From the NCBI GenBank assembly GCA_902770045.1, contig CACXRO010000017.1, positions 9,369 to 73,368 on the forward strand: 64,000 nucleotides of DNA, written 5' to 3'. The first letter of the stretch is position 1. Each line of letters opens with the position of its first letter. The notes beneath the pieces are model-generated. The model ran no database searches, was not told the DNA's origin, and was given only the letters and a program-made list of their open reading frames with translations. This document shows, in pieces, positions 34,822 through 57,439 of this stretch. The translations under genes and the position numbers were made by a program. This DNA comes from an uncultured bacterium. Lineage in GTDB: Bacteria; Verrucomicrobiota; Kiritimatiellia; RFP12; UBA1067.

Positions 34822-34875
34822 TCAAAGGTATTTGGCGGTGAAGGACTCTTTGCAGGCGCGGACCTGGTCGATCGG
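34822..34875 (-). repeat. Exact 54-bp copy of the uvrA 3' end including the stop codon
   Basis: Identical to 43283..43336. Confidence 0.95.
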
Positions 34876-39770: not shown

Positions 39771-40167
39771 CGGCGACGGTCATCGCGAGGACGTCGGCGA
39801 TGTTCTTGCCGGCGTAGGCGACTTCAAGCGTTTCGGCGTTGAAGCGGCGGCCGCCGCACTGCTCGCAGGTGACGTAGACGTCCGGGAGAAAGCTCATTTC
39901 AAGCTTGCGCACGCCGTCCCCGCCGCAGACCTCGCAACGTCCGCCCTTCACGTTGAAGGAGAAGCGCCCGGCGGTGTAGCCACGCGCGCGCGCGGCCTCG
40001 GTCTTGGCGAAGAGCTCGCGGATCTCGGAGAAGAAGCCGACGTAGGTCGCGGGATTGGAACGCGGGGTGCGGCCGATCGGCGACTGGTCGATCTCGACGA
40101 TCTTGTCGAAGTTCTCGGCGCCGGCGAGCTTGGCGAAACGACCCGGGACGTCCTTGGCGCGGTAGAA
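39771..40167 (-). pseudogene. Stranded ~397-bp internal fragment of a divergent uvrA allele
   Basis: Ungapped alignment to 43711..44107 with about 37 mismatches by manual count (~91%), mostly synonymous. Confidence 0.9.
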
Positions 40168-40610: not shown

Positions 40611-43248
40611 ATCGCACCTCCCGAATTTCCAATCCTGGTTGATTACTCTTTATGAGTAAAACATTGACAATAACTTTCAAATCAATTTTGTCGCCATCAT
40701 CATTCAAGTCGCAATTTACCATAGGTTCATCAATAGGCAACTGAAATGGGCCAATATAGAAACCATCTATTGACTGCGCTTCGAGTTCTTCAAGACTAGA
40801 GTACTGTACTCCATACGAAGGATCGTAATATTTGCCTTCGATAACCACTTGGTGATTATTGAACAACGATGCCGGATTGTGATTCCCCTGTCCTGGAATG
40901 CCAACGGCATCGTTTACTTCTGCATATTTCCACCGATACTCCGTCAAACCAATAAACCCGGAATCCAATATATTCAAGTACGGATACTGGGGGTAGCCAC
41001 TCAAACCCACCCCAGAAAAAGTCCAGTTCTTTACCAAGAAGCCAACATAGTTCTGCGGAATTCCAGGCGGAGCAATTGGGTAGAACACAACATATTCATT
41101 TTTGTCGTCAATACCTTGAACCTTACGCAAATCTATAAACAAGGAAGCCCACGCCCCACACTGGCCATCTCCATGCAACAGAAGAGTTGCTGTGTCCACA
41201 TTAGCGCAATTATATGATGCGTAATATGTAAGTTGTACTCCATCAACCCTTCGGACATCCCGATCAGTAAACTCGTCCCAAATTTTTGCCGTGCAATTTT
41301 GCGCCGACACCTCGCCTTGTGCGTTTCTACAGCCGATATGTGCAAGCGTGTGATATACAGTTGTTAGCGGATCGCCGAGTGTGATGTAAGTTTGGTTGCT
41401 GCATGTCCCGCCATCTAGCCATGTCTTCAATCCGTTCATGCTTATTGAAATGCTCCAGTCAATCAGCATCGGGTCAAAGAAATCTACCTTATTGGCGAAC
41501 GGAATGTCGCATTCCAAGTCTACAATCGTCAATTGATTCCCATTTTTCATTACTGCCGTCTCAGGAAAATCAAGTCCATTGGGACCATCACCCTTTACGG
41601 TAATCGCCCAAGGCAGCTCCGAAGGCTCGACTATCCACTTTGCGGATACTTTCATTTTCGAATTCCGAGTAAAACATACTGGATAAGCCCTGTCTCCCGC
41701 GTCGGAAGCGTCACCATCCAGCGGAAATGAATTATCCTGCCAATGCGGTGCCGTATAATTCATGCTCCCGTCATCTTTTGTGACAAGGTGATACTTTGCC
41801 CCGCCAAAGGTCACCTCCTTGAGATTTAGTTTTATGCATGTATACTTCGCCATATCCTTCGCCCCGCTATCTGGATGTTCTATCTGGATTATTTCATCTC
41901 TACATGTACCCGACACAGTATGTCCATGAAGGGCGAACTCCTGACCCGCCAGGATACGAGCCGGAAAGTCGAATTCCACTGGCATCTCGTAGTACTTACC
42001 GCTGCGCTTTACATACAATGATTTCTCCGGAGTAGTTATCGTCACAACCTCTCCATCCGGCAGGTCGCGCGGCTCGCAGGTGATAGACACTGCGACAAGG
42101 GCATTCGTCCCCTCCTCGGTCCACCGCCCGTCCGCCGCGTCCGCGACATAAGGAATGAACGCGCCCTCGGTCTCCTCCTTGTCCTCTCCGACGCCGCCGA
42201 TCGTGACGTCGACCTTCACGACCGTGAAGTTGGTGGTGCACGTCGCCGAGTCCGAGTGGCCGGAGCCGTCGGAAACCGTCGCCGACACTGTCAGCGGCTC
42301 CGCAAGAAACGCGGCGCTGGCGGTGTCGTTGCTGGGCGCGAAGTAGCTCGCCTCCGCCGTGTCCGTGCGCCCGGTGAACGAGCAGATGCCGCAGTCCGAC
42401 CAGGAATAGGACGTGCCGTCCGCCGCCGGGTCGACCAGCGCGGCCGCGACGTTGACGACCGGGCTGGCCCTCCCGGCGTCCGTCCGGTCGAGTCCAAGGT
42501 AGTCGGGCCGCGAGACCGACAGCTCGTGGACGTCGACAACGGAATTGGTTGCCGCGCTGCAGACGCATCTGGAGCAGTCGTTGGACCCGACCACGCGGAA
42601 GGATATCCTCTGCCCCACGCCCTTGGCCATCGGCCCGGCCCAGACCGAAGCCGGAACGACGACGCCGGCGCCGGCCGCCCTCCAGCCATAGGACGTCGGA
42701 TACGTGTCGATGTATTCCTTCACCACCTGTGGGTTGTGCGTGGCTCCGCATATCGGGCACGGGTGCCATGTCGTCACGATCACATGCACCCCGTTGGTCA
42801 CCACCTCCACTGCCGAAGAAACCGAGACCTCCGTGTTGGTCTCCGGGAGCGCGTACAGCCTGACGATCTTCTCCTCGGAGACCGTCGCGCGGATCTTCGG
42901 GGCCGAGACGTGGTTGGTGACTACGGTACACGAAAACACGCAGTCCTCGTAGGGGATGTGCTCCTCGTCCTCGCCGAGGACGCTCGTGGCGCGGAATGCG
43001 CCGCGCTCCCCGGGGCGGTGGACGAAGGAGACCGACCTCCGCCCGTCCACGCGCCAGCCCACGCGGGCGTCGACCCTGACCGGCACCGGCGAAGTCGCGT
43101 TCGAGAAGTGGATGCGCCCGTCTCCAGCGGCCCGGACGCCAGGCGCGTCGACGACGACAAACGAATTGGCCGCGCGGTCCGCGACGAAGGACCGCGACCG
43201 CCGCCCGCCATGCGGCGGAGGGCCTGCCGGAGAGCTTCTGCCTGACAA
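40600..43248 (-). CDS. Large modular secreted-type protein with C-terminal transglutaminase-like (Cys-His-Asp) domain; 5' end disrupted
   Basis: DGQCGAWA, FNNHQVV and YYDPSYG motifs. High-GC 5' half and low-GC 3' half. The promoter-proximal ATG (43258) is in a different frame. Confidence 0.65.
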   Translation of the reverse strand: MSGRSSPAGPPPHGGRRSRSFVADRAANSFVVVDAPGVRAAGDGRIHFSNATSPVPVRVDARVGWRVDGRRSVSFVHRPGERGAFRATSVLGEDEEHIPYEDCVFSCTVVTNHVSAPKIRATVSEEKIVRLYALPETNTEVSVSSAVEVVTNGVHVIVTTWHPCPICGATHNPQVVKEYIDTYPTSYGWRAAGAGVVVPASVWAGPMAKGVGQRISFRVVGSNDCSRCVCSAATNSVVDVHELSVSRPDYLGLDRTDAGRASPVVNVAAALVDPAADGTSYSWSDCGICSFTGRTDTAEASYFAPSNDTASAAFLAEPLTVSATVSDGSGHSDSATCTTNFTVVKVDVTIGGVGEDKEETEGAFIPYVADAADGRWTEEGTNALVAVSITCEPRDLPDGEVVTITTPEKSLYVKRSGKYYEMPVEFDFPARILAGQEFALHGHTVSGTCRDEIIQIEHPDSGAKDMAKYTCIKLNLKEVTFGGAKYHLVTKDDGSMNYTAPHWQDNSFPLDGDASDAGDRAYPVCFTRNSKMKVSAKWIVEPSELPWAITVKGDGPNGLDFPETAVMKNGNQLTIVDLECDIPFANKVDFFDPMLIDWSISISMNGLKTWLDGGTCSNQTYITLGDPLTTVYHTLAHIGCRNAQGEVSAQNCTAKIWDEFTDRDVRRVDGVQLTYYASYNCANVDTATLLLHGDGQCGAWASLFIDLRKVQGIDDKNEYVVFYPIAPPGIPQNYVGFLVKNWTFSGVGLSGYPQYPYLNILDSGFIGLTEYRWKYAEVNDAVGIPGQGNHNPASLFNNHQVVIEGKYYDPSYGVQYSSLEELEAQSIDGFYIGPFQLPIDEPMVNCDLNDDGDKIDLKVIVNVLLIKSNQPGLEIREVRYDR

Positions 43249-43282
43249 GGAACTTCATGTGTGAATTATACCATAATTGCGG

Positions 43283-46183
43283 TCAAAGGTATTTGGCGGT
43301 GAAGGACTCTTTGCAGGCGCGGACCTGGTCGATCGGGCCTTCGCAGACGACGCGGCCGCCGGCGTCGCCGCCGCCGGGGCCGAGGTCGACGATCCAGTCG
43401 GCGCACTTCATGACGTCGGTGTTGTGCTCGATCACGATCACCGTGTTGCCCTGGTCCCGGAGGCGCAGGAGAAGCTTCATCAGCTTGGCGACGTCGTCGA
43501 AGTGGAGCCCGGTGGTGGGCTCGTCGAGGAGGTAGAGCGTGCGTCCGGTCGAGCGCCGCGAAAGCTCCGTCGCGAGCTTGATGCGCTGGGCCTCGCCGCC
43601 GGAGAGGGTGGTGGCGCTCTGCCCGAGCTGGATGTAGCCGAGGCCGACGTCGTCGAGGGTGGCGAGCTTCCGCGCAAGCGAGGGAATCTTCGCAAAAAAG
43701 TCCTTCGCCTCGGCGACGGTCATCGCCAGGACGTCGGCGATGTTCTTGCCGGCGTAGGCGACTTCCAGCGTCTCGGCGTTGAAGCGACGGCCTCCGCACT
43801 GCTCGCAGGTGACGTAGACGTCGGGCAGGAAGCTCATCTCCAGCTTGCGCACGCCGTCGCCGCCGCAGACCTCGCAGCGCCCGCCCTTGACGTTGAAGGA
43901 GAAGCGCCCCGCGGTGTAGCCGCGCGCGCGCGCCGCCTCGGTCTTGGCGAAGAGCTCGCGGATCTCGGAGAAGAACCCGACATAGGTGGCGGGATTGGAG
44001 CGCGGGGTGCGGCCGATCGGCGACTGGTCGATCTCGACGACCTTGTCGAAGTGCTCCGCGCCGGTAAGCTTCGCGAACTTCCCCGGAACCTCCCGCGAGC
44101 GGTAGAAGCGGCGCATGAGCGCGCGCTTGAGCGTCTCGTCGACGAGCGTCGACTTGCCGGAGCCGGAGACGCCGGTTACCACCGTGAACGCGCCGACGGG
44201 GAAGTGCGCGGTGATGTTCTTGAGATTGTGCTCGCGACAGCCGGAGATGGTGAGGTGGTTTAGTGGTTTGGCAGTTTGGTGGGATAACACACGGATTTGT
44301 TCGCGACTAACGTCGCTCACATTTTCAGAATCGCGAGGTTGAATCTTCTTCCTGCCTGTCAAATAGTCGGCAGTGAGCGACTTCGCCTTGAGAAGTCCCT
44401 TGAACGGGCCCTGGTACATCACCTTGCCGCCTTCGCGGCCGGCGCCGGGACCGAGGTCGACAATCCAGTCCGCCGCGCGCATCATCTCTTCGTCGTGCTC
44501 GACGACGACGACGGTGTTGCCGCGGTCGCGGAGCCCCTTGAGGGCGGAGATGAGCCGATCGTTGTCCCGCGGGTGGAGCCCGATCGTCGGCTCATCGAGG
44601 ACGTAGAGGACCCCGGTCAGACCCGAGCCGATCTGCGTTGCCAGGCGGATGCGCTGCATTTCGCCGCCGGAAAGCGACGAGGCCGCGCGGTCGAGGGTGA
44701 GGTAGTCGAGCCCGACGTCAAGCAGGAACTGGAGGCGACGGCAGATCTCCGCCACGATTTCGCCCAGCCCCGAAAGGTTTGTTGCTTGGGGTGCGGTTTT
44801 TTTAGCCGCATAGGACGCAAAGGTCGCAAAGGGTGCGTTCTCTGCGTTCTTTGCGTTCTTTGCGGCTAAACACAACCCATTGAAGAAGGCTAGGGCTTCG
44901 CCGACCGGCATCGCCATTACCTCGACGATGGTCCTGCCGGCGACGGTGGCGGCACGGGAGAACTCGTTGAGGCGGGCGCCGTGGCAGGTCGGGCAGGTGC
45001 GGTAGCTCTGGTACGTCTCCCACTTCGCGCGCGTCTCCTCGTCCTCCGCCTCCTCGAGCCGCTTCTGCAGCGTGGCGAGGACGCCCTCGAAGGGACGGTC
45101 GACGGAGCGCCAGGGCAGAATCAGGTCGTCCTTGAACCCGTGCATCAGGTCGTGGCGGAACTTGGCGGGCAGCTTTTCGTAGGGAGTGGAGAGCTTCACC
45201 TTGTACTGGCGCGCAATCTGCTCCAGGAGCGCGTTGTAGTACATGATCGCGTTGTGTCCGGCGCGGCGCCAGGGGTGGATGCACTCGCGCAGCGGGAGCG
45301 TGCGGTCTGGCACCACCAGCTCCTCGTCGAAGTAGTAGAGGTGGCCGAGGCCGGAGCAGGTCGGGCACGCGCCGTAGGGCGAGTTGAAGGAGAACGACCG
45401 CGGCTTCAATTCGTCGAAGGAAAGTCCGCACTCGACGCAGGCGTTGAGCTCGGAGAACACGGTCGGACGGTCGGGCTTGTCCGCCAGCTCCACCGACATC
45501 ACGCCCTTGCCGGTCTTGAGGGCCAGCTCTACCGAGTCGGTGAGGCGGGTGCGGTCGCAGGGAAGGACAATCCGGTCGACGACGACGTCGATCGTGTGGG
45601 CCTTCTTCTTGTCGAGCGCCGGGACCTCGTCGATCGGATACACCGTGCCGTCGACGCGCACGCGGGCGAACCCGTTGCGCGCGAGCGCGGCAATCGTCTC
45701 CTCGTGGCGTCCCTTCTTGCCCTTGACGACCGGCGCGTAGAGGATTATCCGGCCCGGCTCTCCGGCGGCGAGGGTGTCCACTATCTGTTCGGCGGACTGG
45801 CGGGTCACCGGCCGGCCGCACTTCGGGCAGTGGGGCGTCGCGGCGGATCCGTAGAGGATGCGCAGGTAGTCGTGGATCTCGGTGACGGTGGCGACGATCG
45901 AGCGCGGGTTGCCGCTGGTGGTGCGCTGCTCGATCGAGATCGCGGGCGAGAGGCCCTCGATGCGCTCGACGTCCGGCTTCTGCATCCGGTCGAGGAACTG
46001 CCGCGCGTAGGCCGAGAGCGACTCCACGTAGCGGCGCTGGCCTTCGGCGTAGAGGGTGTCGAAGGCGAGGGACGACTTGCCCGAGCCGGAGAGCCCGGTG
46101 ACCACGGTGAGCGAGTCGCGGGGGATGACGACGTCCACGCCCTTGAGGTTGTGGACCTTCGCGTTCCTGATGGTGATGTCCAT
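43283..46183 (-). CDS. uvrA: Excinuclease ABC subunit A
   Basis: Two ABC cassettes (GLSGSGKSS; GVSGSGKST), LSGGEMQRI and [10 protein letters not shown], zinc fingers. Two repeat-derived in-frame inserts. Confidence 0.98.
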
Positions 46184-46204
46184 GGCGCCGCGTCCCTCCC
46201 GCGC

Positions 46205-47734
46205 CTACTGCAGGTTCTTCAAGTCGAGCGCGAGCAGGAACTGCGGGTTCGACTGGGTCTTCTTGAGCGAGTTCAGCACCGAGCGCATGGCGCTTTCGGT
46301 GCCGGCGGCGGCGAGGTAGCGGCGGAGCGCCCAGGTCTTCTCGAGCTCGAGCGGGTCGAGGAGGAGGTCCTCCTTGCGGGTGCCGGACTTCTCGATGTCG
46401 ATCGCCGGGAAGATGCGCTTGTCGGCGAGGCCGCGGTCGAGCACGATCTCCATGTTGCCGGTGCCCTTGAACTCCTCGAAGATCACCTCGTCCATGCGCG
46501 AGCCGGTGTCGACGAGGCCGGTCGCGATGATGGTGAGCGAGCCGCCGCCCTCGATGTTGCGGGCCGCGCCGAAGAAGCGCTTGGGGCGGTGCATCGCGAG
46601 CGCGTCGACGCCGCCGGTGAGGATCTTGCCGGAGTGCGGCTGCACCGTGTTGTAGGCGCGGGCCATGCGCGTGAGCGAGTCCATGAGGATGATCACGTCG
46701 CGGCCGTTCTCGACCTGGCGCTTGGACATCTCGAGCACCATCTCGGTGACGTTGACATGGTGCTGCGGCTCCTCGTCGAAGGTGGAGGAGAGCACCATCG
46801 CCTTCGTGTTGCGCTGCATGTCGGTGACCTCCTCCGGGCGCTCGTCGATCAGCAGGATGATGAGCATCGCCTCGGGATGGTTCTTCGAGATGGCGTTGGC
46901 CATCTTCTGCAAAAGCACCGTCTTGCCCACGCGCGGCGGCGCGATGATGAGGCCGCGCTGGCCGAAGCCGATGGGCGTGAAGAGGTCGACGACGCGGGTG
47001 GAGAGCTCCTTCGGGTCGGTCTCGAGGATTATCCGGCGCGTCGGGAAGGTGGCGGTGAGGTTCTCGAAGTGGATCACGCGCGCGGCGGCGGACGGCTCCT
47101 TGCCGTTCACCGAGACCACGGCGCCGAGGCAGAAGAAGCGGTCGCGGTCGCGCGGGTCGCGCACCGGTCCCTCGACGATGTCGCCGGTGCGGAGCGCGTG
47201 GCGGCGGATCTGCTGCTGGGTGACGAACACGTCCTCTGGGCAGGCGAGGAAGTTGTTCTTCGCGGAGCGCAGGAAGCCGTGGCCCTCGCGCACGATCTCC
47301 AGGCAGCCGGAGGCGAGCACCGCGCCGCCGCGGGCGAGGTAGGAGCGGATTGCCGCGAAGATGAGCTCGTGCTTGCGGTAGCTGCCGAGCTCCTCGGGGT
47401 CGGCGCCGGGCATCATCCGCTCGACGATCGCGGGCGCTGGCCAGGTCTGGATGTCGGCGAGGCGGTACTCGGGCAAATCCGGGTTGCGGTTGGGGTTGAC
47501 GGCCGGCGCGGCCTCCGCGGCGACTGGCTCGGCCGGGAGCGGCGCGTTGAGGAGCGGATTCACCGACTCCTCGCCGTTTGCCCCGCGGATCGGGGAGTTG
47601 TTGGCCTTCGCCGGGCCGGGCGCGCGGTTGAACTTCTTGAACGTGCGGTACTGTTTGGGCTTTGCCGGCCCGTTCTGGCGAGCGCCGCCCTTGGGAGGCA
47701 CCGCGCCCGCGAAAACATCGAGTTCTTCGGACAT
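46205..47734 (-). CDS. rho: Transcription termination factor Rho
   Basis: [49 protein letters not shown]. Confidence 0.97.
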
Positions 47735-47899
47735 GATTGGATTTGTGGTTTGGGGTTGGGGGTTGCCATGCCGCCTGTCGCGATTAGGCTGCTTGCGGCC
47801 AGGCGGCAACAAAGTCATTGGTGCGTATTATACCATATTTCCGGATCGTGATTTTTAGTTTCGTCGAAGTTATAAGTGGTGAAACGGTTTGGGATATTT

Positions 47900-48128
47900 G
47901 GAACTCCGATGGTTGTGGCTCCCGCTACCGCTCCGCGGCTTCGCATCACACAACCACAATCCAGTAGATTGCGTTATTTGGTTTTATATCTGGGGGCAAG
48001 CCCCCAGACCCCTGCGGCGGAGCCGCAGATGTATAACATGGCCATAGTGGCCGTGTAAGACGAATGTCAAATGCTAAGCGCACACCATTCTGCGGAGCGG
48101 TAGCGAGAGCCCCACAGATCGGAGTTTC
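47900..48128. mobile_element. MITE/REP-like non-coding element with ~38-bp imperfect terminal inverted repeats
   Basis: 47900-47937 GGAACTCCGATGGTTGTGGCTCCCGCTACCGCTCCGC versus the reverse complement of 48091-48128. Internal hairpins TCTGGGGGCAAGCCCCCAGA and CTGCGGCGGAGCCGCAG. Confidence 0.55.
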
Positions 48129-48177
48129 AAACACTACGCCGTCGGCACTTCCACAAAATTCTTTGAAGAACTGATTT

Positions 48178-48852
48178 TTACTGGACGAAGTAGTAGAGGC
48201 GCTGGATGTCGAGGGGGAAGAGGTCCGGGATCTTGCCCTCGAGCGCGGCGGCAATGCGGCGGTCGCAGCAGGTGAAGCGCACCTGGGCGCCGAGCGCGTC
48301 CGCGACGGCCTGCGCGTAGGGGACGGACGCAGCGACGTCCTCCGGCCGCGTCTGCTGGCCGAGGTTGGTGTTGTTGACGACGCCGGTGAAGGGGATTCCC
48401 GCGGCGGCCTCGATCTCGCGCAGCGTCGCGACGGCGTCGGCTGGCGTGCGGGTGAGCGGGCGCGACGCGTTCACGACCGCGAGCATGTCGTAGTCGCCCT
48501 CGGCGAGGATGTCGCCGGTCCAGCGGCCGAGAGCGAGCGCGCCGCGGTCGTCGCCGCCGACGTCCATCACCACGTGCGTCGAGCGGTCGGCGACGAGCGC
48601 GTAGATCTCCTTCGGAAGCGCGGGGAAGTCGACGTTCGAGTTGGCGAAGGGCGAGACGACGAGCCCGATGCCCTCCGCGGCGAGCGCCGCGGCACTGTCC
48701 TTGGTGCGGAAATACGGGTTGACGATGTCGAGGTCGGCGATGCACGTCCGCAGACCGGCGCGGGCGAGCGCCCGCGCGTAGTTGAGCGCGATGTTGGTCT
48801 TGCCGCTGCCGTAGTGGCCGGCGAAGATGGTTACTCTGCGGGACGGGTCCAT
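48178..48852 (-). CDS. P-loop ATP-binding protein (MinD/CobQ-like family)
   Basis: AGHYGSGKTN, DLDIVNPYFRT, DVGGDDRGA. Confidence 0.8.
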   Translation of the reverse strand: MDPSRRVTIFAGHYGSGKTNIALNYARALARAGLRTCIADLDIVNPYFRTKDSAAALAAEGIGLVVSPFANSNVDFPALPKEIYALVADRSTHVVMDVGGDDRGALALGRWTGDILAEGDYDMLAVVNASRPLTRTPADAVATLREIEAAAGIPFTGVVNNTNLGQQTRPEDVAASVPYAQAVADALGAQVRFTCCDRRIAAALEGKIPDLFPLDIQRLYYFVQ

Positions 48853-48926
48853 TTGCGCGTAGTATACCATTTTTTGGTATAATACGCGTCAACGGCTTAA
48901 ACCACATAAGGAAAGGTCAAAAGGAC

Positions 48927-49934
48927 ATGAACCAGGCAGAGAAGGAGCGCCTCGCCCGAGTCGGCAGGACGTTCAACGCAAAGAAGTACATTGCCGAGGA
49001 GATCGAGGCCATCAGGAAGCAGGTCGGCAACCGGAAGGTGCTGCTCGCGATGTCGGGCGGCGTCGACTCGTCCGTCTGCGCGGTGCTGCTGCAGAAGGCG
49101 ATCGGCAAGCAGCTCGTCTGCGTGTTCGTCGACCACGGCTGCATGCGCCTCAACGAGGCGAAGGAGGTTAAGAAGGTCTTCAAGGGCAAGTTCGGCATCA
49201 ACCTCATCCAGATCGACGCCGAGGCCCGCTTCCTCAAGAAGGCGAAGGGCATCACCGACCCCGAGCTCAAGCGCAAGTGCATCGGCGGCGAGTTCATCAA
49301 GGTCTTCGCCGACGTCGCGCGCGACCTCAAGAAGAAGTTCGGCGACATCGACTTCCTCGGCCAGGGCACGATCTACCCCGACATCATCGAGTCGGGCGTC
49401 GGCGGCAACAAGGCGGTGAAGGCCCACCACAACGTGGGCGGGCTCCCGAAGGACATCATCTTCAAGGGCCTCGTCGAGCCGGTGAAGTACCTCTACAAGG
49501 ACGAGGTGCGCAAGGTCGGCAAGCTCCTCGGCATCCCCGAGGAGATGGTCATGCGCCAGCCGTTCCCGGGCCCGGGCCTCGCGGTCCGCTGCATCGGCGA
49601 GCTCACCAAGGAGAAGCTCGACATCCTCCGCCAGGCGGACTTCATCTTCCGCGACGAGATGAAGAAGGCGAAGCTCGACAGGAAGGCGCAGCAGTTCTTC
49701 GCGATCAACTCGAACGTGAAGGCGGTCGGCGTCAAGAACGGCGCGCGCACCTACGGCTACGTGATCGCGATCCGCGCGATCTCCACGCAGCAGTTCGTCA
49801 AGGCCGGCGTCGTGGAGCTGCCGTTCAAGTTCGTGACGGCCGTCGCCGAGAAGATCGCGACGAAGGTGAAGGGCGTCAACCGCGTGGTGTGGGACGTGAC
49901 GCCCAAGCCGCCCGCCACGATCGAGTGGGAGTGA
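48927..49934 (+). CDS. guaA: GMP synthase ATP-pyrophosphatase (B) subunit, no glutaminase domain
   Basis: SGGVDSSV, QGTIYPDIIES, HHNVGGLP, RQPFPGPGL, DVTPKPPATIEWE. Only 335 aa. Confidence 0.85.
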   Translation: MNQAEKERLARVGRTFNAKKYIAEEIEAIRKQVGNRKVLLAMSGGVDSSVCAVLLQKAIGKQLVCVFVDHGCMRLNEAKEVKKVFKGKFGINLIQIDAEARFLKKAKGITDPELKRKCIGGEFIKVFADVARDLKKKFGDIDFLGQGTIYPDIIESGVGGNKAVKAHHNVGGLPKDIIFKGLVEPVKYLYKDEVRKVGKLLGIPEEMVMRQPFPGPGLAVRCIGELTKEKLDILRQADFIFRDEMKKAKLDRKAQQFFAINSNVKAVGVKNGARTYGYVIAIRAISTQQFVKAGVVELPFKFVTAVAEKIATKVKGVNRVVWDVTPKPPATIEWE

Positions 49935-49944
49935 TCTCGCCGAG

Positions 49945-51333
49945 GTGAAGCGCTCGGCCAGGGCATGGACGCTGTTCGCGGCGACCCGAGTCGTCGGGCT
50001 CGCCGCGGACGTCTGCGCCGTCGGCGCGGCGTACTACGGGGCGATCCTCCTCAGGTTCGACCTGCGCGCGCCGCGCTGGGGCTGGACGGCGGTGCTGACC
50101 AGCTTCTCGGTCGTCGCGCTCGTCCACGTCCTCGCCCTCGCCGCCGCCGGCTGCTACCGCCTCGCCTGGCGGCGCACGCGCCTGAAGGACCTCTCGCGCT
50201 ACCTCGTCGCGACCGCGGCGGCCTGCGCGGTGCTCACCGGCCTCAGGTTCGTGCTGCCGGTGGAGAGCTACGCCCACGTGCGCCCGCCCTACTCGGTGAC
50301 GCTCATCTGCTTCGTGCTCGCGTCGGTCGCGCTGGTCATCTGGCGCATCGCCTGGAGCTGGCTGTGGCAGTCTCGCGCGAGCGACGAGCGCCTCATCGAG
50401 CGGAGCGTGGCGAGGATGGACGCCGCGCCCGCCACCGGGTTCATCTGCGGGCGCACGGTGATGGTGACCGGCGCCGGCGGGTCGATCGGCTCGGAGCTCG
50501 TGCGCCAGGCGCTCGCGGCGAAGCCGAAGCGGCTTTTGATGGTGGAGCGCGGCGAGAACGCGCTCTACCAGATCGAGCGCGAGGTGCGCTCGCGCTTTCC
50601 GGAGGCGGACGTCCGCGCACTGATGAAGGACGTGAACGACGTCGCCGCGATGCGCGAGATCTTCGCCGAGCACCGTCCGGAGATCGTTGTCCACGCCGCC
50701 GCCTACAAGCATGTGCCGATGGTGGAGGCGAACCCGGAGGAGGGCTGGCGCAACAACACCGAGGCGACGCGCGCGCTCGCGGAACTCGCCCGCGAATTCG
50801 GCGTCCGCCGCTTCGTCCTCATCTCCACCGACAAGGCGGTGAACCCGGTTTCGGTGATGGGCAAGACCAAGCTTGCCGCGGAGCAGGCGGTGATGGAGCT
50901 CAACTGCGACTGCTCCGCCGAGTCGCTCGCGCCGCAGACGAGCTTCTGCGCGGTCAGGTTCGGCAACGTGTTCGGTTCCTCGGGATCGGTGGTGCAGCTC
51001 TTCCGCGAGCAGATCCTCGGCCGGCGTCCGGTGACGGTGACCGATCCGGCGATGGAACGCTACTTCATGACCGTCTCCGAGGCGGTGGGGCTGGTGCTGC
51101 AGGCGGCGAGCAGGTCCGAGAAGGCGATCTACACCCTGGACATGGGCGAGCCGGTGAGGATCCTCGATCTCGCCGAGGGGATGATCCGCCAGGCCGGGCT
51201 GAGGCCGTATGTGGACATACCGATCGTCTTCACCGGCATCCGCCCCGGCGAGAAGCTGCGCGAGGAGCTGGACGTCTCGGACAAGTCGGCCTACAAGACC
51301 GACATGGCCAAGATCTACATCACGAAGGCCTAA
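49945..51333 (+). CDS. CapD/PglF-like nucleoside-diphosphate sugar dehydratase
   Basis: Four N-terminal TM helices; TGAGGSIGSE, HAAAYKHVP, ISTDKAVNP, VRFGNV.GSSGSV, GIRPGEKL. Confidence 0.9.
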   Translation: MKRSARAWTLFAATRVVGLAADVCAVGAAYYGAILLRFDLRAPRWGWTAVLTSFSVVALVHVLALAAAGCYRLAWRRTRLKDLSRYLVATAAACAVLTGLRFVLPVESYAHVRPPYSVTLICFVLASVALVIWRIAWSWLWQSRASDERLIERSVARMDAAPATGFICGRTVMVTGAGGSIGSELVRQALAAKPKRLLMVERGENALYQIEREVRSRFPEADVRALMKDVNDVAAMREIFAEHRPEIVVHAAAYKHVPMVEANPEEGWRNNTEATRALAELAREFGVRRFVLISTDKAVNPVSVMGKTKLAAEQAVMELNCDCSAESLAPQTSFCAVRFGNVFGSSGSVVQLFREQILGRRPVTVTDPAMERYFMTVSEAVGLVLQAASRSEKAIYTLDMGEPVRILDLAEGMIRQAGLRPYVDIPIVFTGIRPGEKLREELDVSDKSAYKTDMAKIYITKA

Positions 51334-51336
51334 ACC

Positions 51337-54300
51337 TCAGATCTCGTTGAGCCCGGGCTTGAGTTCGAGCGACTGTCCGCCGTAGACGAACCTGCCGGCG
51401 ACGGGCGTCCGCACGGTGCCGGCGGCCTTGCCGTCCGCGAACCTGAGCTCGACCTCGATCCAGCCCTTCGGGTGCGGGTGCGACGCCTTGAGCTCGCCGA
51501 GCGGACCGGGGCACGGCGCGACGAGCACCTTCTCGAAGAACGGCGCGTCGGACCTGATGCCGGCGAGCCCGGTCTGCATGAACCAGATCGGGTGCGCGCC
51601 CCAGGCGTGGCAGTCGCTTCTCGACTCCTGCTGCCCGTTCTTGCCCTTGTCCGGTGCCTCCTGCGTCGTGGCGAGGCCCTTCTTCACGTAGTCTCGCCAG
51701 AGGTCGAGCCGCTTGAGGAAGAGGTCGCCGCGCCCGTACTTGAAATACGCCTCGAAGAGATAGTACGAGAAATACACGGTGCAGCGCTTGAGGTTCCTGT
51801 CTTCGACGAGGTGGCGGAACGCGGCGGCGGCCTTGTCCTCGGGCAGGACTTCGCCGACGAGCGCGAGCGCCTGCGCGTGCTCCGAGAAGTCCTTCTTCGC
51901 CGGCGTGTCGGCGAGGAGGGAGCGCCTCGGGTCCCAGAACTTCTCGACGATCTTCGCCTTCAGCGCCGCGGACTTCTCCTCCCAGTACTTCGCCTGCAGC
52001 TCGTGGCCGAGCGCGCGCTCGACCGCCGCGGCGGAGCGCATGGCGAGGTTCCAGTAGAGGTTGAGCTCGGCGTTGACGCCGTCGCCGAAGCGGCAGCCGC
52101 GCGCGGTGCCGTCGCCTTCCCAGCCGTCCGTCCAGTCCATGAAGTTCCAGCCCGGCAGGTTCTCGAGCAGTCCGTCCTTGTTCTCGTAGTACTCCATTCC
52201 CGCCATCGACTTCCTGAGGCCGGGCAGCCGCGCGCGCAGCCACGCGCGGTCGGCGTGGTTCATCGCGTAGTCGCCGTACATCAGCAGGTAGCAGAGTGTG
52301 TAGCTCGCGCCCTCCTGCGTGTAGCGCGTCGGATAGTTGAACGGGCACTGCCCGTCGTCGCGCGTGTTGAGGTCGTAGATTTCGATCGCGCGCCTGATGA
52401 TGCGGTCGTCGCGCGACATCGCGGAGAGGACGTTCAGCTGCACGCGCGTGTCGCCGGGATACATCTGCTGCTCGTAGAACGGGCAGTCGAAGAGCATCTC
52501 GTGGCAGCACATCTGCATCGCGCGCGCGGAGATGCGGCGGATGTCGGCGAGGGACGCGTCGTCGGCCGACGAGAACGCGCTCTCCAGCTCCACCGGATAG
52601 CGCGACTCGATGAGCGCGACGGAGTCGACCGTGAGCGGCTCGTCGCCGGTCTCGACGTCGATCCTCACCCACTTGCCGCAGCGGAACCACGGCGCGGAGA
52701 ACCGCGCCTTCGTCCGCCCGTCGGAGACGAACGTGTCGCCGAAGGCGTTCAGGTAGCGGCCGACGATCGCGTCGCGCGAGCCCGGTTCGCTCGTCTTGAG
52801 CTTGCTGTCGCCGCGCAGCGTCGCCTCGGCGAAGTTGAGCGAGAACTTCGCGCCCTTGCCGCCTGAGAGGACGACGTCCGGGTAGGCGCAGTAGTAGTTG
52901 CCGAGGTCCCACGCAAGCTGCATCTTCGTGCGCGCGGGGACGGTGAACGGCTTGGAGAGGTCGACCGTCTCCTTCGCCTCGTCCTCGGTGTAGACGTGGG
53001 GGCGGCGGAATTCCGTTCCCCTGGCGACCGCCTTGACCCTGCCGGGCGTGCAGCGGATCTCGGTCTGGTCGGGGAGCTGCGAGGGGAAGAGCATCCACCC
53101 GGTCGTGCGGATGCCGTAGATGAACGGACCTGGCACGCCCGCAGGCCCGCGCACGACCTCCGGCTTCGTCCACTCGGCCGGCTCGCCGGAATACGGACCG
53201 CACCCGGTGATCTCGAACTGGTCGCCGCCGCCCCAGGCGCCGCCGTCCTTGCCGGCGGGGCGGATTCCGGAAATTCTCCCCACCGTCCAGGCGCCCTTGC
53301 CGGTGGTGAGCTTCGCGTCGAACTGCCCGTTCGCCTTGAAGATAAAACCGCCGCGGTAGGAAAGCTGCGCGAGCGGGGCCGAGTCGCCGATGACCTGCAC
53401 GTACGCCTCGAAGACGTGGCGCCCCGGCTTCAGGTCGGCGACGTAGGTCTGATACTGCCAGTTCTCCACCGTGCCGCGGTTGGGCCCGCGCGCGACGAAC
53501 TCGCCGTCGAGCAGGAGCACGAAGCGCTCGTCGGCCGAGACGTCGAATACGAGCGGGGCCGCGCCCTCCGCGACCTCGAACTCGTTGCGGAACTTGACGA
53601 AGCAGAACCTGTCGTTCGCCGCGCCGGGCAGCCACAGCCACGACGCGTCGTCGACCGGCTGCACCTTGAGGATGTTGGTGTTGCCGCGGGTGACGCGAGC
53701 GTCGCGGAAGGCGCGGCGGACCCTGGCGCCTTCGACGGCGTCCATCGCGGCGCCGCGGAGGACTTTCGCGCGGCCGTCGTCGAGCCAGTCCGGCCGGTAT
53801 TCGCACTTGCGCACGTCGGCGCCGAAGAGCTTGGCCGTCCATACCAGCCCCTGCAGGTACTGCCCCTGCCGGTTGAAGTGGAAGTCCGGGCTGGTGAAGA
53901 GCTGGTTGCGGTCGTCGACGAACTCCGCCGCGGTGCCGACGGGGATGACCTCCAGGGCGTGCCGCTTCGCGAATGCGGCGTAGGCCGCCCTCAGCCGAGC
54001 GTACATCTCGACCTGGTCGAAGCCGTATTTCCCGAGGCGCCGGTCCCACGGCGGATAGCTCCACGTCTCCTGCACGACGATCTTCGCCTGCGGCGCGAGT
54101 TCGCGGATCTTCGCGACGAGCCTGTCGCCCTCGGGCTGGAACGTCGACGGGTTCCAGCTGTCGTGGCTCGCCTGCTGGACCGTCACCACGTCCCACTTCT
54201 CCATCGCCAGCGCGTCGGGGATGTTGGCGCGTCCGTCCGAGACCTCGGCCTTGCCGTCGGCAGTGCGGTCGAAGCGGTACGGCTTGAACGCGGCGTTGGT

Positions 54301-54543
54301 GGAGGCGACCACGTTGTTCCAGTGGCGCTTGAGCGAGCAGCCGGGGATGTAGAGCGAGCCGAGGTCGAGCTTGAGGCCCATCGACTTCGCGATCGGCGGC
54401 ATCTCCTTCAGGTTGCAGATCGAGAAGCTGTTTCCGATCATCAGCACCTTGAGGGGTTTCTCTTTGGCAGCCGCGGCGGACTCGGCGGCGGGGGCGAACG
54501 ACGCCACGGCGCACGCCGCGGCCAGGATGATGATTTTCTTCAT
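51337..54543 (-). CDS. Secreted DUF4886 (SGNH-like) + GH78 alpha-L-rhamnosidase fusion
   Basis: Signal peptide; IGNSFS, WDVVTVQQAS, QETWSY; then DCPFYEQQMYPGD and SDCHAWGAHP (GH78). Confidence 0.85.
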   Translation of the reverse strand: MKKIIILAAACAVASFAPAAESAAAAKEKPLKVLMIGNSFSICNLKEMPPIAKSMGLKLDLGSLYIPGCSLKRHWNNVVASTNAAFKPYRFDRTADGKAEVSDGRANIPDALAMEKWDVVTVQQASHDSWNPSTFQPEGDRLVAKIRELAPQAKIVVQETWSYPPWDRRLGKYGFDQVEMYARLRAAYAAFAKRHALEVIPVGTAAEFVDDRNQLFTSPDFHFNRQGQYLQGLVWTAKLFGADVRKCEYRPDWLDDGRAKVLRGAAMDAVEGARVRRAFRDARVTRGNTNILKVQPVDDASWLWLPGAANDRFCFVKFRNEFEVAEGAAPLVFDVSADERFVLLLDGEFVARGPNRGTVENWQYQTYVADLKPGRHVFEAYVQVIGDSAPLAQLSYRGGFIFKANGQFDAKLTTGKGAWTVGRISGIRPAGKDGGAWGGGDQFEITGCGPYSGEPAEWTKPEVVRGPAGVPGPFIYGIRTTGWMLFPSQLPDQTEIRCTPGRVKAVARGTEFRRPHVYTEDEAKETVDLSKPFTVPARTKMQLAWDLGNYYCAYPDVVLSGGKGAKFSLNFAEATLRGDSKLKTSEPGSRDAIVGRYLNAFGDTFVSDGRTKARFSAPWFRCGKWVRIDVETGDEPLTVDSVALIESRYPVELESAFSSADDASLADIRRISARAMQMCCHEMLFDCPFYEQQMYPGDTRVQLNVLSAMSRDDRIIRRAIEIYDLNTRDDGQCPFNYPTRYTQEGASYTLCYLLMYGDYAMNHADRAWLRARLPGLRKSMAGMEYYENKDGLLENLPGWNFMDWTDGWEGDGTARGCRFGDGVNAELNLYWNLAMRSAAAVERALGHELQAKYWEEKSAALKAKIVEKFWDPRRSLLADTPAKKDFSEHAQALALVGEVLPEDKAAAAFRHLVEDRNLKRCTVYFSYYLFEAYFKYGRGDLFLKRLDLWRDYVKKGLATTQEAPDKGKNGQQESRSDCHAWGAHPIWFMQTGLAGIRSDAPFFEKVLVAPCPGPLGELKASHPHPKGWIEVELRFADGKAAGTVRTPVAGRFVYGGQSLELKPGLNEI

Positions 54544-54597
54544 GTGCGCATTATACCATAATTTCCGGTCCAGTGGTTGAAGCCCGGTGCCTATTAA

Positions 54598-54870
54598 AGT
54601 TGAAAGGTTGAAAAGTTGAAAGGTTGAAAGGCCGCGGCAGATTGCGCGGCGGTTTTGGTTTAACACGCGGATTTGTTCGCGTCTAACGACGCTCACCTTT
54701 CGCGGCGGCGGAAATCTGCCGCGAAAGCCAACACGGCCCGCGGCAAAAATGGTATAATTCACGCGATGAACAACCGTGACAAGTCCGCGCTTGCGCTCGC
54801 CCTCGCCATCGTGGGCGGAATTGCGGCTGGCTTGCGCTACACCCCGCGCCCCGCGGCATATACAGTAAAA
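54598..54870 (+). repeat. Direct repeat S copy 1: TTGAAAGG tandems + 12-mer + palindrome + promoter + signal-peptide stub
   Basis: Aligns with 56071..56359. Contains the stub ORF 54766..54882 (MNNRDKSALALALAIVGGIAAG...). Confidence 0.9.
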
Positions 54871-54907
54871 ACATGTAGGTGAAGACGGGGGAGAAGGAGG
54901 TTCGCTG

Positions 54908-56008
54908 ATGCCATACGACGATCCGGCACTTAAGGAGTTTGACGGCTATTATCAGGCCAGGAGCGCGAGTCAGAGGGAGCGCGCCGAAAACTGGGCTGTC
55001 GCCATCGGTTTGCAGAAAGTGGATGGGCTTGTTCCGTCGGAACACTTGATTTCCGTTGCGAAGCGTCATATTGAAGGGCAGATTACCGGTGCGGAGGCGA
55101 CAAGTCTTGTCGATCGTTATTACGAGACCAAGGCCGGACATGATCTGCCGGAAGATGTGAAGGAAGCCGATCGCGTCGCTGCCAGGATCAATGAGGTCAT
55201 TGAGGACGAAGGCTTCAGTTTCTCCCCGACATATCTTGTCGCTTTGCATGGATTGATATTCGAGGGCGTGTTCCCCCACGCTGGATCAATCCGCGATGTA
55301 AACCTCCGCAAGCGCGAGTGGGTGCTAAGGGGCGACAGCGTGACATACGGCCACGCTCCGGCGATCGAAAAGACACTGGACTACGATTTCGACCGTGAAC
55401 GGGAATATTCATATTCCGGCAAGGGCAAACGCGAAATCATTGCCCACTTCTCGCGCTTCATTGCCGGGATATGGCAGATACATCCCTTTCGGGAGGGCAA
55501 TACGCGCACGACTGCGGTTTTTGCGATAAAATATTTGAAGTCGATGCGCATCAAGGCAACGAACGATCTTTTTGCGGAGAACTCGTGGTTCTTTCGGAAT
55601 GCCCTTGTGAGAGCCAACTATGAAAATCCGCTTTCCGGAATTTCGCGCGACATGGAGCCTCTCGAACGCTTCTTCCGCAATCTTATCCTTGGCGAGGAAA
55701 ACGAACTTAAGAACCGGTATTTGCTTGTCGGGATCAAACCGTCCGAAAAGGCGCAGCTTGATGCCAACCGGCAAGGCAGTCAGAAAAAAGCGGTCAGAAA
55801 AAAGCGGTCAGAAAAAAGCGGTCAGAAAACGGCTGACCGGCTGGTGTCGCTGCTCAAGGCAAATCCGCATCTCACGCAGGAGGGAATGGTTGCGGCTCTA
55901 ATGATAACGCGGAGCACTGTCCAGAAGCATATTTCAAACTTGAAAAAGTCGGGCCTCCTTCGCCGTGTCGGACCAGACAAGGGAGGACATTGGGAGGTTG
56001 CGAAATAA
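54908..56008 (+). CDS. Fic-family protein with N-terminal VbhA-like antitoxin segment and C-terminal HTH
   Basis: HPFREGNTRT Fic motif; AIGLQKVDGL.PS N-terminus; RRVGPDKGGHWEV winged-helix tail. Confidence 0.9.
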   Translation: MPYDDPALKEFDGYYQARSASQRERAENWAVAIGLQKVDGLVPSEHLISVAKRHIEGQITGAEATSLVDRYYETKAGHDLPEDVKEADRVAARINEVIEDEGFSFSPTYLVALHGLIFEGVFPHAGSIRDVNLRKREWVLRGDSVTYGHAPAIEKTLDYDFDREREYSYSGKGKREIIAHFSRFIAGIWQIHPFREGNTRTTAVFAIKYLKSMRIKATNDLFAENSWFFRNALVRANYENPLSGISRDMEPLERFFRNLILGEENELKNRYLLVGIKPSEKAQLDANRQGSQKKAVRKKRSEKSGQKTADRLVSLLKANPHLTQEGMVAALMITRSTVQKHISNLKKSGLLRRVGPDKGGHWEVAK

Positions 56009-56070
56009 TGACAAAAGGGTTGGACCCTTCTGTATAACGCCGGTTGAAAGGTTGGGCGGAGCCGGTTGAG

Positions 56071-56359
56071 AAGTTGAAAAGTTGAAAGGTTGAAAGGCCG
56101 CGGCAGTTTTGATTAACACGCGGATTTGTTCGCGTCTAACGACGCTCACCTTTCGCGGCGGCGGGAATCTGCCGCGAAGGTTAACACGGAGCGCGGCAAA
56201 AATGGTATAATTCACGCGATGAAACCCCATGCCAAGACCGCGCTTTCCCTCGCCCTCGCCATCGTGGGCGGAATTGCGGCTGGCATGCGCTGTGACGCGT
56301 CCGTGACGGTGGAAACCCCGACGCAGATCAACCCGCGCCCTGCGGCATATACAGTAAAA
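56071..56359 (+). repeat. Direct repeat S copy 2
   Basis: Same order of elements as 54598..54870; stub MKPHAKTALSLALAIVGGIAAG. Confidence 0.9.
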
Positions 56360-56653
56360 GCATATACAGAAGGGTCTGCCCCTTTTGTCCCACTCACTGG
56401 TCAGGCATGGGCCGAATCACCCGACGAAAAGACGGCTGATGCGTTCGCGGCAGACATGCTGTTGCCGGCGTCTTGCAACAGGGAGGTAGCGGCACTCAAT
56501 TCTCTTGCAGAAGTCAGGCGCTTCGCAGATGACCACGACCTTTCGCCGGGCATAGTCGTGGGACGGTATCGCCATATCACGCAACGATTCAACGCATTCG
56601 GCAATTCCATAGCCCGCTTCACATGGTCAGAGGGGATGTGGAGGGTTGCATAG
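56219..56653 (+). pseudogene. Chimeric ORF: signal-peptide stub fused to an ImmA/IrrE-like C-terminal fragment
   Basis: After the S-repeat stub: EKTADAFAADMLLP...SPGIVVGRYRH. The HExxH core is absent. Confidence 0.55.
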
Positions 56654-56704
56654 AGCGCAGCCATCGCGCCAGTCCAATAGAGGCTGACATTGGGAGGTGG
56701 AGAA

Positions 56705-57439
56705 ATGACAAAACTCATTGAAAATGCGCGGCGGGAAGAGTGGATTGCGCTTGCTAAAAGAGTAGGCTACATTCATGCTGCCGATGTTATTGCCTCAGGC
56801 GACATGTCGCAAGAGTGGATGTTTGCCGAACTGATAATTGCATTTGCGGCGGGGCGAGAAAGGGGGCAGGAGGGTTGCTTCTACGATGTCGTACCAGTTG
56901 GCAGCACCGAAACAAGTCCGATTGATGCCTATGATGACAATTGGCTGCTAGAAGGCAAACCAGAAGGAACTGTCGTGCCGCCGGCGAGCGGGCGCGAGAC
57001 AATTAGGACGCCAAACCTGAAATGTGCAAACCCGTCATTCGCGGCAAGATTGATTATGTATGTAAGGGACAAGTTTGGCGGAGATGCACCGACCATATAC
57101 CGGGCAGCGCATATTAGCCGTAAAACGTATTCGGCAATCATCAGCAATGAACTGCGACCGGTCTCAAAGCATGTTGCCATTGCATTTGCCTTTGCGCTAA
57201 GGTTGTCTCTAGCCGAGGCGAAGGAGTTGTTGCGCTCTGCCGGTCACGCACTTTCGGACTTCATCCTTGAGGACATAATCTATCAAGCCTGCATTATCGC
57301 TGGGATTTACGATATAGCACGGGTAAATCAAATATTAACCGCTCATAATGCAAAGCCTTTGCCTTGTCAAGATGAGGCATCAAAATGTCTCCAACGCGGA
57401 GACAACTTAAAAAAAGAACAAACCTACATTCCATTGTGA
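56705..57439 (+). CDS. XRE-type HTH protein (the family often fused to macro domains)
   Basis: IYRAAHISRKTYSAI, SKHVAIAFAFAL.LSL.EAKELLRSAGHALS, YDIARVNQIL. Confidence 0.7.
   Translation: MTKLIENARREEWIALAKRVGYIHAADVIASGDMSQEWMFAELIIAFAAGRERGQEGCFYDVVPVGSTETSPIDAYDDNWLLEGKPEGTVVPPASGRETIRTPNLKCANPSFAARLIMYVRDKFGGDAPTIYRAAHISRKTYSAIISNELRPVSKHVAIAFAFALRLSLAEAKELLRSAGHALSDFILEDIIYQACIIAGIYDIARVNQILTAHNAKPLPCQDEASKCLQRGDNLKKEQTYIPL

Follow-up and report, generated by a model that had tools for sequence, protein, structure and literature searches.

That palindromic repeats invade essential genes in frame is, to our knowledge, textbook for Rickettsia only, where this has been linked to an intracellular, reductive lifestyle. 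Rickettsia palindromic elements (RPEs) measure ~100-150 bp and are known from these obligate intracellular bacteria (Ogata et al. 2000, Science 290:347, via the review PMC10969869). Repetitive extragenic palindromic (REP) doublets forming hairpins (REPINs) are defined as extragenic and as linked to a flanked gene for a REP-associated tyrosine transposase (RAYT) (Bertels & Rainey 2011, PMC3116915), and among bacterial MITEs (transposable elements of miniature size with inverted repeats) in-frame genic insertions are described for ERIC, BOX and the Anabaena MITEs, which can create translational fusions (PMC10969869). Here, we describe S, a dispersed palindromic repeat of gut Kiritimatiellae, and a copy of it that lies in frame in uvrA, the gene for a class I UvrA protein. 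The copy lies in a 64,000-nt window (the whole stretch of DNA analysed), which is part of contig C17 of genome G000, a metagenome-assembled genome (MAG) of an uncultured cattle-gut bacterium, with 2.27 Mb in 87 contigs and 64.7% G+C, whose closest public relatives are gut and rumen Kiritimatiellae MAGs. We conclude that the stretch in uvrA is very probably a truncated module of the dispersed repeat, carried as a neutral, translated, RPE-like passenger and not as a new functional domain.

Results

A sequence-only reading of the window had proposed that uvrA contains, at 44255-44340 in the linker before the second ABC domain, an in-frame insert that is a copy of the intergenic S palindrome, with a 36-mer that matches at about 54661 and 56115. 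The features concerned are:

43283..46183, minus strand: uvrA gene, coding for the 966-aa class I UvrA P0001, from the list of open reading frames (ORFs) and the translation
44255..44338, minus strand: whole repeat-derived in-frame stretch, 84 nt, UvrA residues 616-643, inter-ABC linker
44255..44284, minus strand: three degenerate 8-nt tandem units and a 6-nt remnant, on the plus strand GTGGTTTA GTGGTTTG GCAGTTTG GTGGGA, coding 10 residues
44285..44320, minus strand: S left arm, which is the 36-mer, with the small hairpin GCGAC-TAAC-GTCGC at 44303-44316
44321..44338, minus strand: whole S central loop, then 2-3 nt from the start of the right arm (ATTTTCAGAATCGCGA-GG), whose remainder is missing
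54661..54696, plus strand: intergenic single-arm S copy, then a second hairpin and a TGGTATAAT promoter-like box
56114..56149, plus strand: intergenic single-arm S copy, layout as at 54661

The 36-mer (TAACACACGGATTTGTTCGCGACTAACGTCGCTCAC, 44285-44320 on the plus strand) recurs with three mismatches each at 54661-54696 and at 56114-56149, the second match starting exactly at 56114, and no match arose in 100 dinucleotide-preserving shuffles. Two of the three mismatches form a compensatory pair in the small hairpin, which reads GCGTC-TAAC-GACGC in the intergenic copies and GCGAC-TAAC-GTCGC in uvrA. Scored by a profile of 21 other S arms, from which the uvrA copy was excluded, the uvrA arm reaches 53.4 bits (E 3.5e-14), which bears out the in-frame copy of the intergenic repeat. 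The stretch as delimited here, 44255-44338, coincides with the proposed range and lies in the proposed linker, past ABC module I and ahead of the Walker A motif of module II; 332 codons separate it from the 3' end of uvrA.

The description as a copy of the palindrome needs narrowing: the stretch is S-derived, yet it is not the whole palindrome but one arm and the loop (together 54 nt) after 8-nt units. With flanked models, the homology to S is confined to ~44274-44338. The kinship to the copies at 54661 and 56114 holds at the level of the family, but the nearest form is the full palindromic subtype (49.4 bits) and not the promoter-linked single-arm subtype (38.3 bits). Homology reaching into the promoter-linked part of the two intergenic copies was rejected, given that the match to the single-arm subtype stops at 44324. 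A full palindrome on contig C51 of genome G043 (L108) has the uvrA arm with one mismatch and an identical loop ATTTTCAGAATCGCGA, with 96% identity over 55 nt, and contig C15 of G031 has the identical 35-mer arm of uvrA and a similar loop. The layout of an array followed by an arm is also found elsewhere: in G070 (L110) an array of (GTGGTTAG/GTGGTTGG)n abuts an S arm, and 8- to 12-nt arrays precede other S copies.

On the RNA level the insert folds weakly. The uvrA mRNA forms only a 5-bp hairpin there (z -1.25), and a strong mRNA structure at the insert was rejected on that value. About 50 nt from the end of the S arm (GTCGCTCAC, 44312-44320), native uvrA contains GTGAGCGAC (44373-44381, codons of KSLTA), a perfect 9-nt inverted match to it, which may be microhomology used in insertion, or chance.

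That the segment might be an ancestral UvrA linker present in distant taxa is contradicted by the ortholog alignment. The segment is absent from 19 UvrAs of the same genus or order, from 38 others, among them those of Victivallales, Omnitrophota, Chloroflexota and Deinococcus, and from the solved UvrA 2R6F, and is evidently not ancestral to the linker. Between GRK and LTISG, the linker has 31 aa in the G000 protein and 15-20 aa in the 19 same-genus or same-order proteins, and it exceeds that of congeners or of solved UvrA by ~15 aa; among the 38 further UvrAs, those from outside the gut Kiritimatiellae have one that is short and constant in length. The alignment to 2R6F opens gaps of 1, 8 and 7 residues (16 in total) at the S stretch. 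On the DNA level, the 84-nt repeat occupies the place of ~45-60 nt in relatives and has therefore replaced native linker (~40 nt), not merely extended it. The proposed in-frame insert is thus in frame, but no clean addition.

A structural model of the linker places the stretch in a poorly ordered part of the protein. The AlphaFold model (39 sequences) has a mean predicted local distance difference test score (pLDDT) of 82.9 and a predicted template modelling score of 0.70, and pLDDT falls to 51 at residues 621-630 and to 48 at residues 631-640. A helix is modelled at residues 624-634 with low confidence (pLDDT ~50). Comparable values, 46-50, are found for the blocks 451-470, which belong to a second insert described below.

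The motifs of the host protein are intact. Pfam assigns UvrA_inter (PF17760), UvrA_DNA-bind (PF17755) and ABC_tran (PF00005), residues 3-966 align to the solved 2R6F, and the match to 3ZQJ and 3PIH is also full-length. Every column that is invariant across 39 UvrAs is kept, including the Walker A and B motifs, the signature motifs and the zinc cysteines, and the protein has the two ABC modules, the UvrB-interaction and DNA-binding insertion domains and the three zinc modules of class I UvrA. Partial uvrA copies lie downstream of the intact gene: 39771-40137 (367 nt) is 92.6% identical to coding nucleotides 2107-2473, and 34822-34875 is 100% identical to the last 54 nt of uvrA. The whole-gene blastn search with uvrA was very permissive, and most of its lines are noise.

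Searched by profile across G000, the S arm has 32 matches at ~24 loci. The full subtype is an imperfect palindrome of ~80-90 nt, composed of TAACACACGGATTTGTTCGCGACTA(A)CGTCGCTCAC, a loop and GAAGGTCGTAGACCTGAGCAAATCCGTGTGTTA, and folds at -40.2 kcal/mol (z -7.1), and in the single-arm subtype a lone arm precedes a second hairpin and a TGGTATAAT box. S copies are overwhelmingly extragenic. Full copies often lie just past a stop codon, ~35 nt ahead of a TGGTATAAT box; as a side observation, S palindromes frequently stand directly after the stop codon of genes ending in ...YYLR (C9 25436, C11 513 and 9251, C14 91339). Terminal inverted repeats, ACACACGGATTTG...CAAATCCGTGTGT, bound elements of ~80 nt that have the small size and the lack of coding capacity of MITEs. 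Most full copies have TA at both ends, a dinucleotide that is itself palindromic and inseparable from the inverted repeat. Among 101 genomes sampled from the genus, 10 contain the S 35-mer.

The 5-bp stem of the small S hairpin covaries. In 23 distinct arms, drawn from 10 genomes, pairing holds in 97.4% of the cells and there are nine double changes, with UA, GC, CG and AU all found at one position. None of 500 shuffles scored as high, and all slid controls collapsed. The search pattern had N at the two covarying stem positions and thus did not itself impose the pairing. The covariation therefore indicates that some structural constraint on DNA or RNA acts on the S element. Within 43000-57000 of the window, Rfam 15 gives no S-related match at E up to 1, and a known RNA family for S was rejected on this basis.

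Complete S palindromes are found in frame in two other genes, an ELM1-family gene in G043 (PF06258, 136.8 bits) and the gene for a large NPPF-motif protein in G060, where the palindrome is read as IKQTDLLTPNGVRDPENVSRVSGEQIRVLN. The strand and frame of S are the same in UvrA, the ELM1 gene and the NPPF gene, and the peptide RDSENVS(D/G)VSREQIRVL, or RDPENVSRVSGEQIRVL in the G060 version, recurs across these three unrelated proteins. Six-frame translation of S elements leaves one of the six frames free of stops, and this is the one used. The shared peptide arises because one frame alone is open, a survivorship effect as for RPE families. That the genic copies are in frame and free of stops argues that the segment is translated, since its removal or bypass would make frame and stops irrelevant. 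The ELM1 orthologue of G000 itself lacks S, and its surrounding loop has diverged.

Among close strains the linker site is polymorphic. The closest UvrAs are those of G031 (96% aa identity), G043 (95%) and G074 (RUG14537; 93%); the S segment is absent from all three, and other repeats occupy the linker. In G031 and G043 the site holds a hairpin, CCGCCTTCGCCTAGGCTACGGCGG, flanked by (CACGAACC)n units, and in G074 a third mixture of tandem units. The linker inserts of G000, G031/G043 and G074 all end in 7-8-nt arrays beside LTISG. The hairpin of G031 and G043 belongs to a third dispersed family, CACGAGCCACCCGCCTTCGCCTAGGCTACGGCGGGCAGGCGAGCC, with at least 10 copies in G000 at up to 96% identity, among them:

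C68 871-965: third-family CACGAGCCACCCGCCTTCGCCTAGGCTACGGCGGGCAGGCGAGCC copy
C58 2914-2970: third-family CACGAGCCACCCGCCTTCGCCTAGGCTACGGCGGGCAGGCGAGCC copy
C67 5088-5138: third-family CACGAGCCACCCGCCTTCGCCTAGGCTACGGCGGGCAGGCGAGCC copy
C37 1951-1998: third-family CACGAGCCACCCGCCTTCGCCTAGGCTACGGCGGGCAGGCGAGCC copy

The S allele is not confined to G000. When residues 585-665 are searched, 28 protein clusters match them, with the insert, at ≥95% identity; the clusters come from dozens of independent contigs in ENA and NCBI (one cluster on 21 contigs, another on 12), and the DNA of the insert is identical in three other assemblies. Two variants of the backbone carry the S-arm allele. In allele P0029, 12 nt (ATCCGTGTGTTA; 4 aa) are lost between ATCC direct repeats inside the S arm, a direct sign that decay proceeds by short-homology deletion. 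Within the 30 nt 5' of the insert, eight differences from G031, G043 and G074 are clustered, most of them synonymous, compared with ~3-6% elsewhere in uvrA, and this diverged flank suggests that the allele is old or that allele and flank were imported as one. An earlier claim of ours, that the insert is younger than the split from G031, is withdrawn, given that the alleles recombine and the flank is unusually diverged.

UvrA of G000 has a second repeat-derived site, here called site 1, at which a palindrome of another family is complete:

44801..44870, minus strand: second in-frame insert, complete 70-nt palindrome of another family, TTAGCCGC(AAAGNACGC)3...(GCGTNCTTT)3GCGGCTAA; residues ~438-462; 9-nt units

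This palindrome folds at -48.8 kcal/mol (z -7.75), and the alignment to 2R6F breaks at residues 446-476. The insert is common to G031; G043 has (CACGAACC)n instead, G074 has (GAAAGGGAC)4, and the site is nearly empty in allele P0003. Combined with the S-arm allele, site 1 occurs in four states: RTTN, RTTNHEPRTTN, the second palindrome, and that palindrome with one extra 9-nt unit. Many gut Kiritimatiellae have tandem-repeat peptides such as NNRIIESSNNRIVESS, SNSQTLKPSNSQTLK and LTPNPCPLTPNPSSL at both variable UvrA sites (L029, L035, L036, L038, L060, L061).

The TTAGCCGC family has 32 arms at 26 loci in G000. It lies in frame in ORFs that we read by eye, with putative names, as carB (twice), pyrG, gltB, purF, mnmG (three times) and a glycosyltransferase gene. 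These ORFs (C4 40840-53106, C15 29193-29872) also code (HLTTQPPN)n, NPVNPVNPV and TTNHEPRTTNHE from 8-9-nt tandem arrays, and arrays related to the 8-nt units of uvrA code (HLTTQPPN)n in the putative CarB, GltB and PurF. On contig C42 (10677-11145), a GxxExxY gene (128 aa; TIGR04256, 108.9 bits) has a TTAGCCGC-family arm on either side, the two arms being inverted, and the locus is a candidate autonomous form of that family. A side observation concerns the arrays: upstream of eno, between an S palindrome and a TGGTATAAT box, (CACGAACC)n has 2 units in G000 (C13 ~20700-20760) and ~9 in G031 (C23, L121), and array copy number therefore shifts fast between close relatives.

Three Y1_Tnp-like (HUH) genes with long C-terminal extensions are present in G000 at weak matches of 24-31 bits (C37 22007-22723; C25 25047-26138; C56, minus strand, ~16538-16771). 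No S copy lies within 300 nt of any of the three, the nearest being ~10-13 kb off, and the Y1_Tnp genes of G031, G043, G074 and G084 are likewise not flanked by S. A link between S and a RAYT was rejected as shown, though not as excluded, because no Y1_Tnp gene is flanked by S or near it in these five genomes. The gene on C37 is preceded by palindromes of the GGGGACAGTCCCC type and not by S. IS630-type DDE_3 is absent from G000, G031, G043 and G074, which in MAGs is weak evidence. An IS630/Tc1-type parent, suggested by the TA ends, was rejected given this absence from G000 and its three nearest relatives and given that the ends of the G060 copy are unrelated. G031 likewise has the S palindrome between coaBC and eno, and in G074, G043, G006 and G084 other genes lie upstream of eno. 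For the second family, the near-empty site-1 allele P0003 offers no clean boundary.

Discussion

The uvrA stretch is homologous to S, truncated, placed in a disordered linker and polymorphic among close strains, in a protein that keeps its catalytic motifs. We infer that it is translated and neutral. A module of 8-nt array and hairpin would have been inserted, presumably by an enzyme, at a linker that such repeats were already using as a landing pad; short-homology deletion would then have removed the right arm, and the allele would have spread among strains by homologous recombination, for which its occurrence with four site-1 states, its two backbone variants and its diverged 5' flank speak. 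Survival in uvrA would be owed to the sole stop-free frame of the six, to a length that is a multiple of three and to a disordered surface segment in which extra residues would be harmless. This route, insertion of the whole module and later loss of the right arm, has in our judgement slightly less than an even chance of being correct in its details. The main competitor is that no transposition took place and that the stretch was copied or patched in, one module being swapped for another, through recombination (illegitimate or microhomology-mediated) or gene conversion involving the 8-nt arrays beside such hairpins in intergenic regions and in the linker. Such patching is possible, on balance improbable. 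It accords with three repeat families occupying one linker site in strains 93-96% identical, all ending in 7-8-nt arrays beside LTISG, with only part of the palindrome being in uvrA and the native linker being replaced, with the clustering of differences in the 5' flank, with the 9-nt inverted match of GTGAGCGAC to the arm end, and with the position of uvrA next to an island with uvrA relics. However, complete S palindromes are in frame in two other genes, as expected of unit insertion, the in-arm deletion of one allele makes truncation after insertion plausible, and no donor junction was identified. A route other than insertion or array patching is unlikely. Both named routes yield the same RPE-like passenger.

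Several points weigh against the passenger interpretation. Translation of the stretch as 28 linker residues, though most likely, is read from the open frame only. No cognate mobilising enzyme for S was found among Y1_Tnp and DDE_3, and neither coaBC-eno nor ELM1 nor uvrA offered a clean empty site from which a target-site duplication could be read. The exchange of ~84 nt for ~40 nt of linker fits recombinational patching as well as insertion and decay, and the identical insert kept in many assemblies, together with the low-confidence helix at 624-634, may leave room for some function. An adaptive insert, in which the peptide, possibly as a helix, or an mRNA hairpin forms a new interaction or regulatory feature under selection, would agree with the insert DNA being identical in several independent assemblies and kept on different backbones, and with the same peptide in three unrelated proteins and the modelled helix. 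We consider it quite improbable: the shared peptide is explained by the single open frame, sister strains have no S insert and carry unrelated repeats there, an allele with a 4-aa deletion exists, the helix has a pLDDT of ~50, and the mRNA forms nothing beyond the 5-bp hairpin. An assembly or binning artefact, with the repeat wrongly joined into uvrA, is a natural worry in a MAG of 87 contigs, since repeats are classic misassembly sites; it is hardly credible for an insert that is in frame with uvrA on both sides, whose allele recurs in 28 protein clusters, on dozens of contigs that other samples yielded, and whose DNA is identical in three of these contigs. Equally far-fetched is the reverse direction, in which the intergenic S copies derive from the uvrA linker, or a chance or ancestral similarity. 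Nothing beyond the similarity itself speaks for these, whereas G031, G074, G043, G084 and others carry S though their uvrA has no insert, the uvrA copy is a truncated form of the full palindrome, chance is excluded by the shuffles (0 of 100) and the profile score, and distant UvrAs lack the segment.

A natural allelic series exists: a near-empty site, an array alone, a hairpin (family A, B or C) and a partly deleted hairpin. With it, the entry of such DNA into genes, its rate of turnover and the tolerance of a protein linker become open to test. Such segments also inflate apparent divergence, break alignments of marker genes (uvrA, carB, pyrG) and may be mis-annotated as low-complexity domains. 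A wider proposal, which we regard as speculative and rather unlikely, is that the array-plus-hairpin modules (the S, TTAGCCGC and CCGCCTTCGCC families and others) would make up a single, so far undescribed mobile-DNA class of gut Kiritimatiellae, whose members home to and replace one another at 7-9-nt array landing pads, including flexible loops of housekeeping proteins, through a dedicated enzyme that is still to be tied to them, such as the GxxExxY nuclease nested in one family or a Y1 HUH protein. If true, this would mean rapid turnover of protein loops among strains otherwise >93% identical.

Relation to known systems

Compared with the solved class I UvrAs (2R6F, 3PIH, 3ZQJ), the host protein is a full-length orthologue with the Walker, signature and zinc motifs. 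It has two lineage-specific segments, ~25-30 aa after residue 437 and ~16 aa in the inter-module linker, neither of which has a counterpart in any solved UvrA.

Like REPINs, full S copies are inverted doublets with a long hairpin, single arms (singlets) exist as well, a small stem covaries, and most copies are extragenic. S therefore has the doublet and singlet forms but neither flanks a RAYT gene nor is strictly extragenic, given the uvrA copy and the two genic copies in relatives. Like MITEs, S is small and non-coding and has terminal inverted repeats, and most full copies are bounded by TA, though this TA is inseparable from the inverted repeat; in contrast to MITEs, neither an autonomous parent insertion sequence with matching ends nor a filled and empty pair was found for S.

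The closest parallel is with RPEs. Both are dispersed palindromes that lie between genes and in frame in unrelated genes (housekeeping genes in the case of RPEs), both use one frame and give one conserved peptide per family, and both occupy positions tolerated by the fold and encode no transposase. In S, the in-frame copies are in conserved genes and are absent from orthologues (uvrA of G000 and the ELM1-family gene of G043, together with the NPPF gene of G060). Unlike RPEs, S has free-living gut Kiritimatiellae as hosts, measures 80-90 nt in full and 54 nt in uvrA, and is joined to 7-9-nt tandem arrays, and different families swap at the same protein site in near-identical strains. The likeness is one in kind, by organisation, and by host and size S stands outside the RPE family proper. 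The same outcome as in Rickettsia is thus now seen in a free-living gut and rumen lineage, with much shorter elements and in an enzyme with solved structures.

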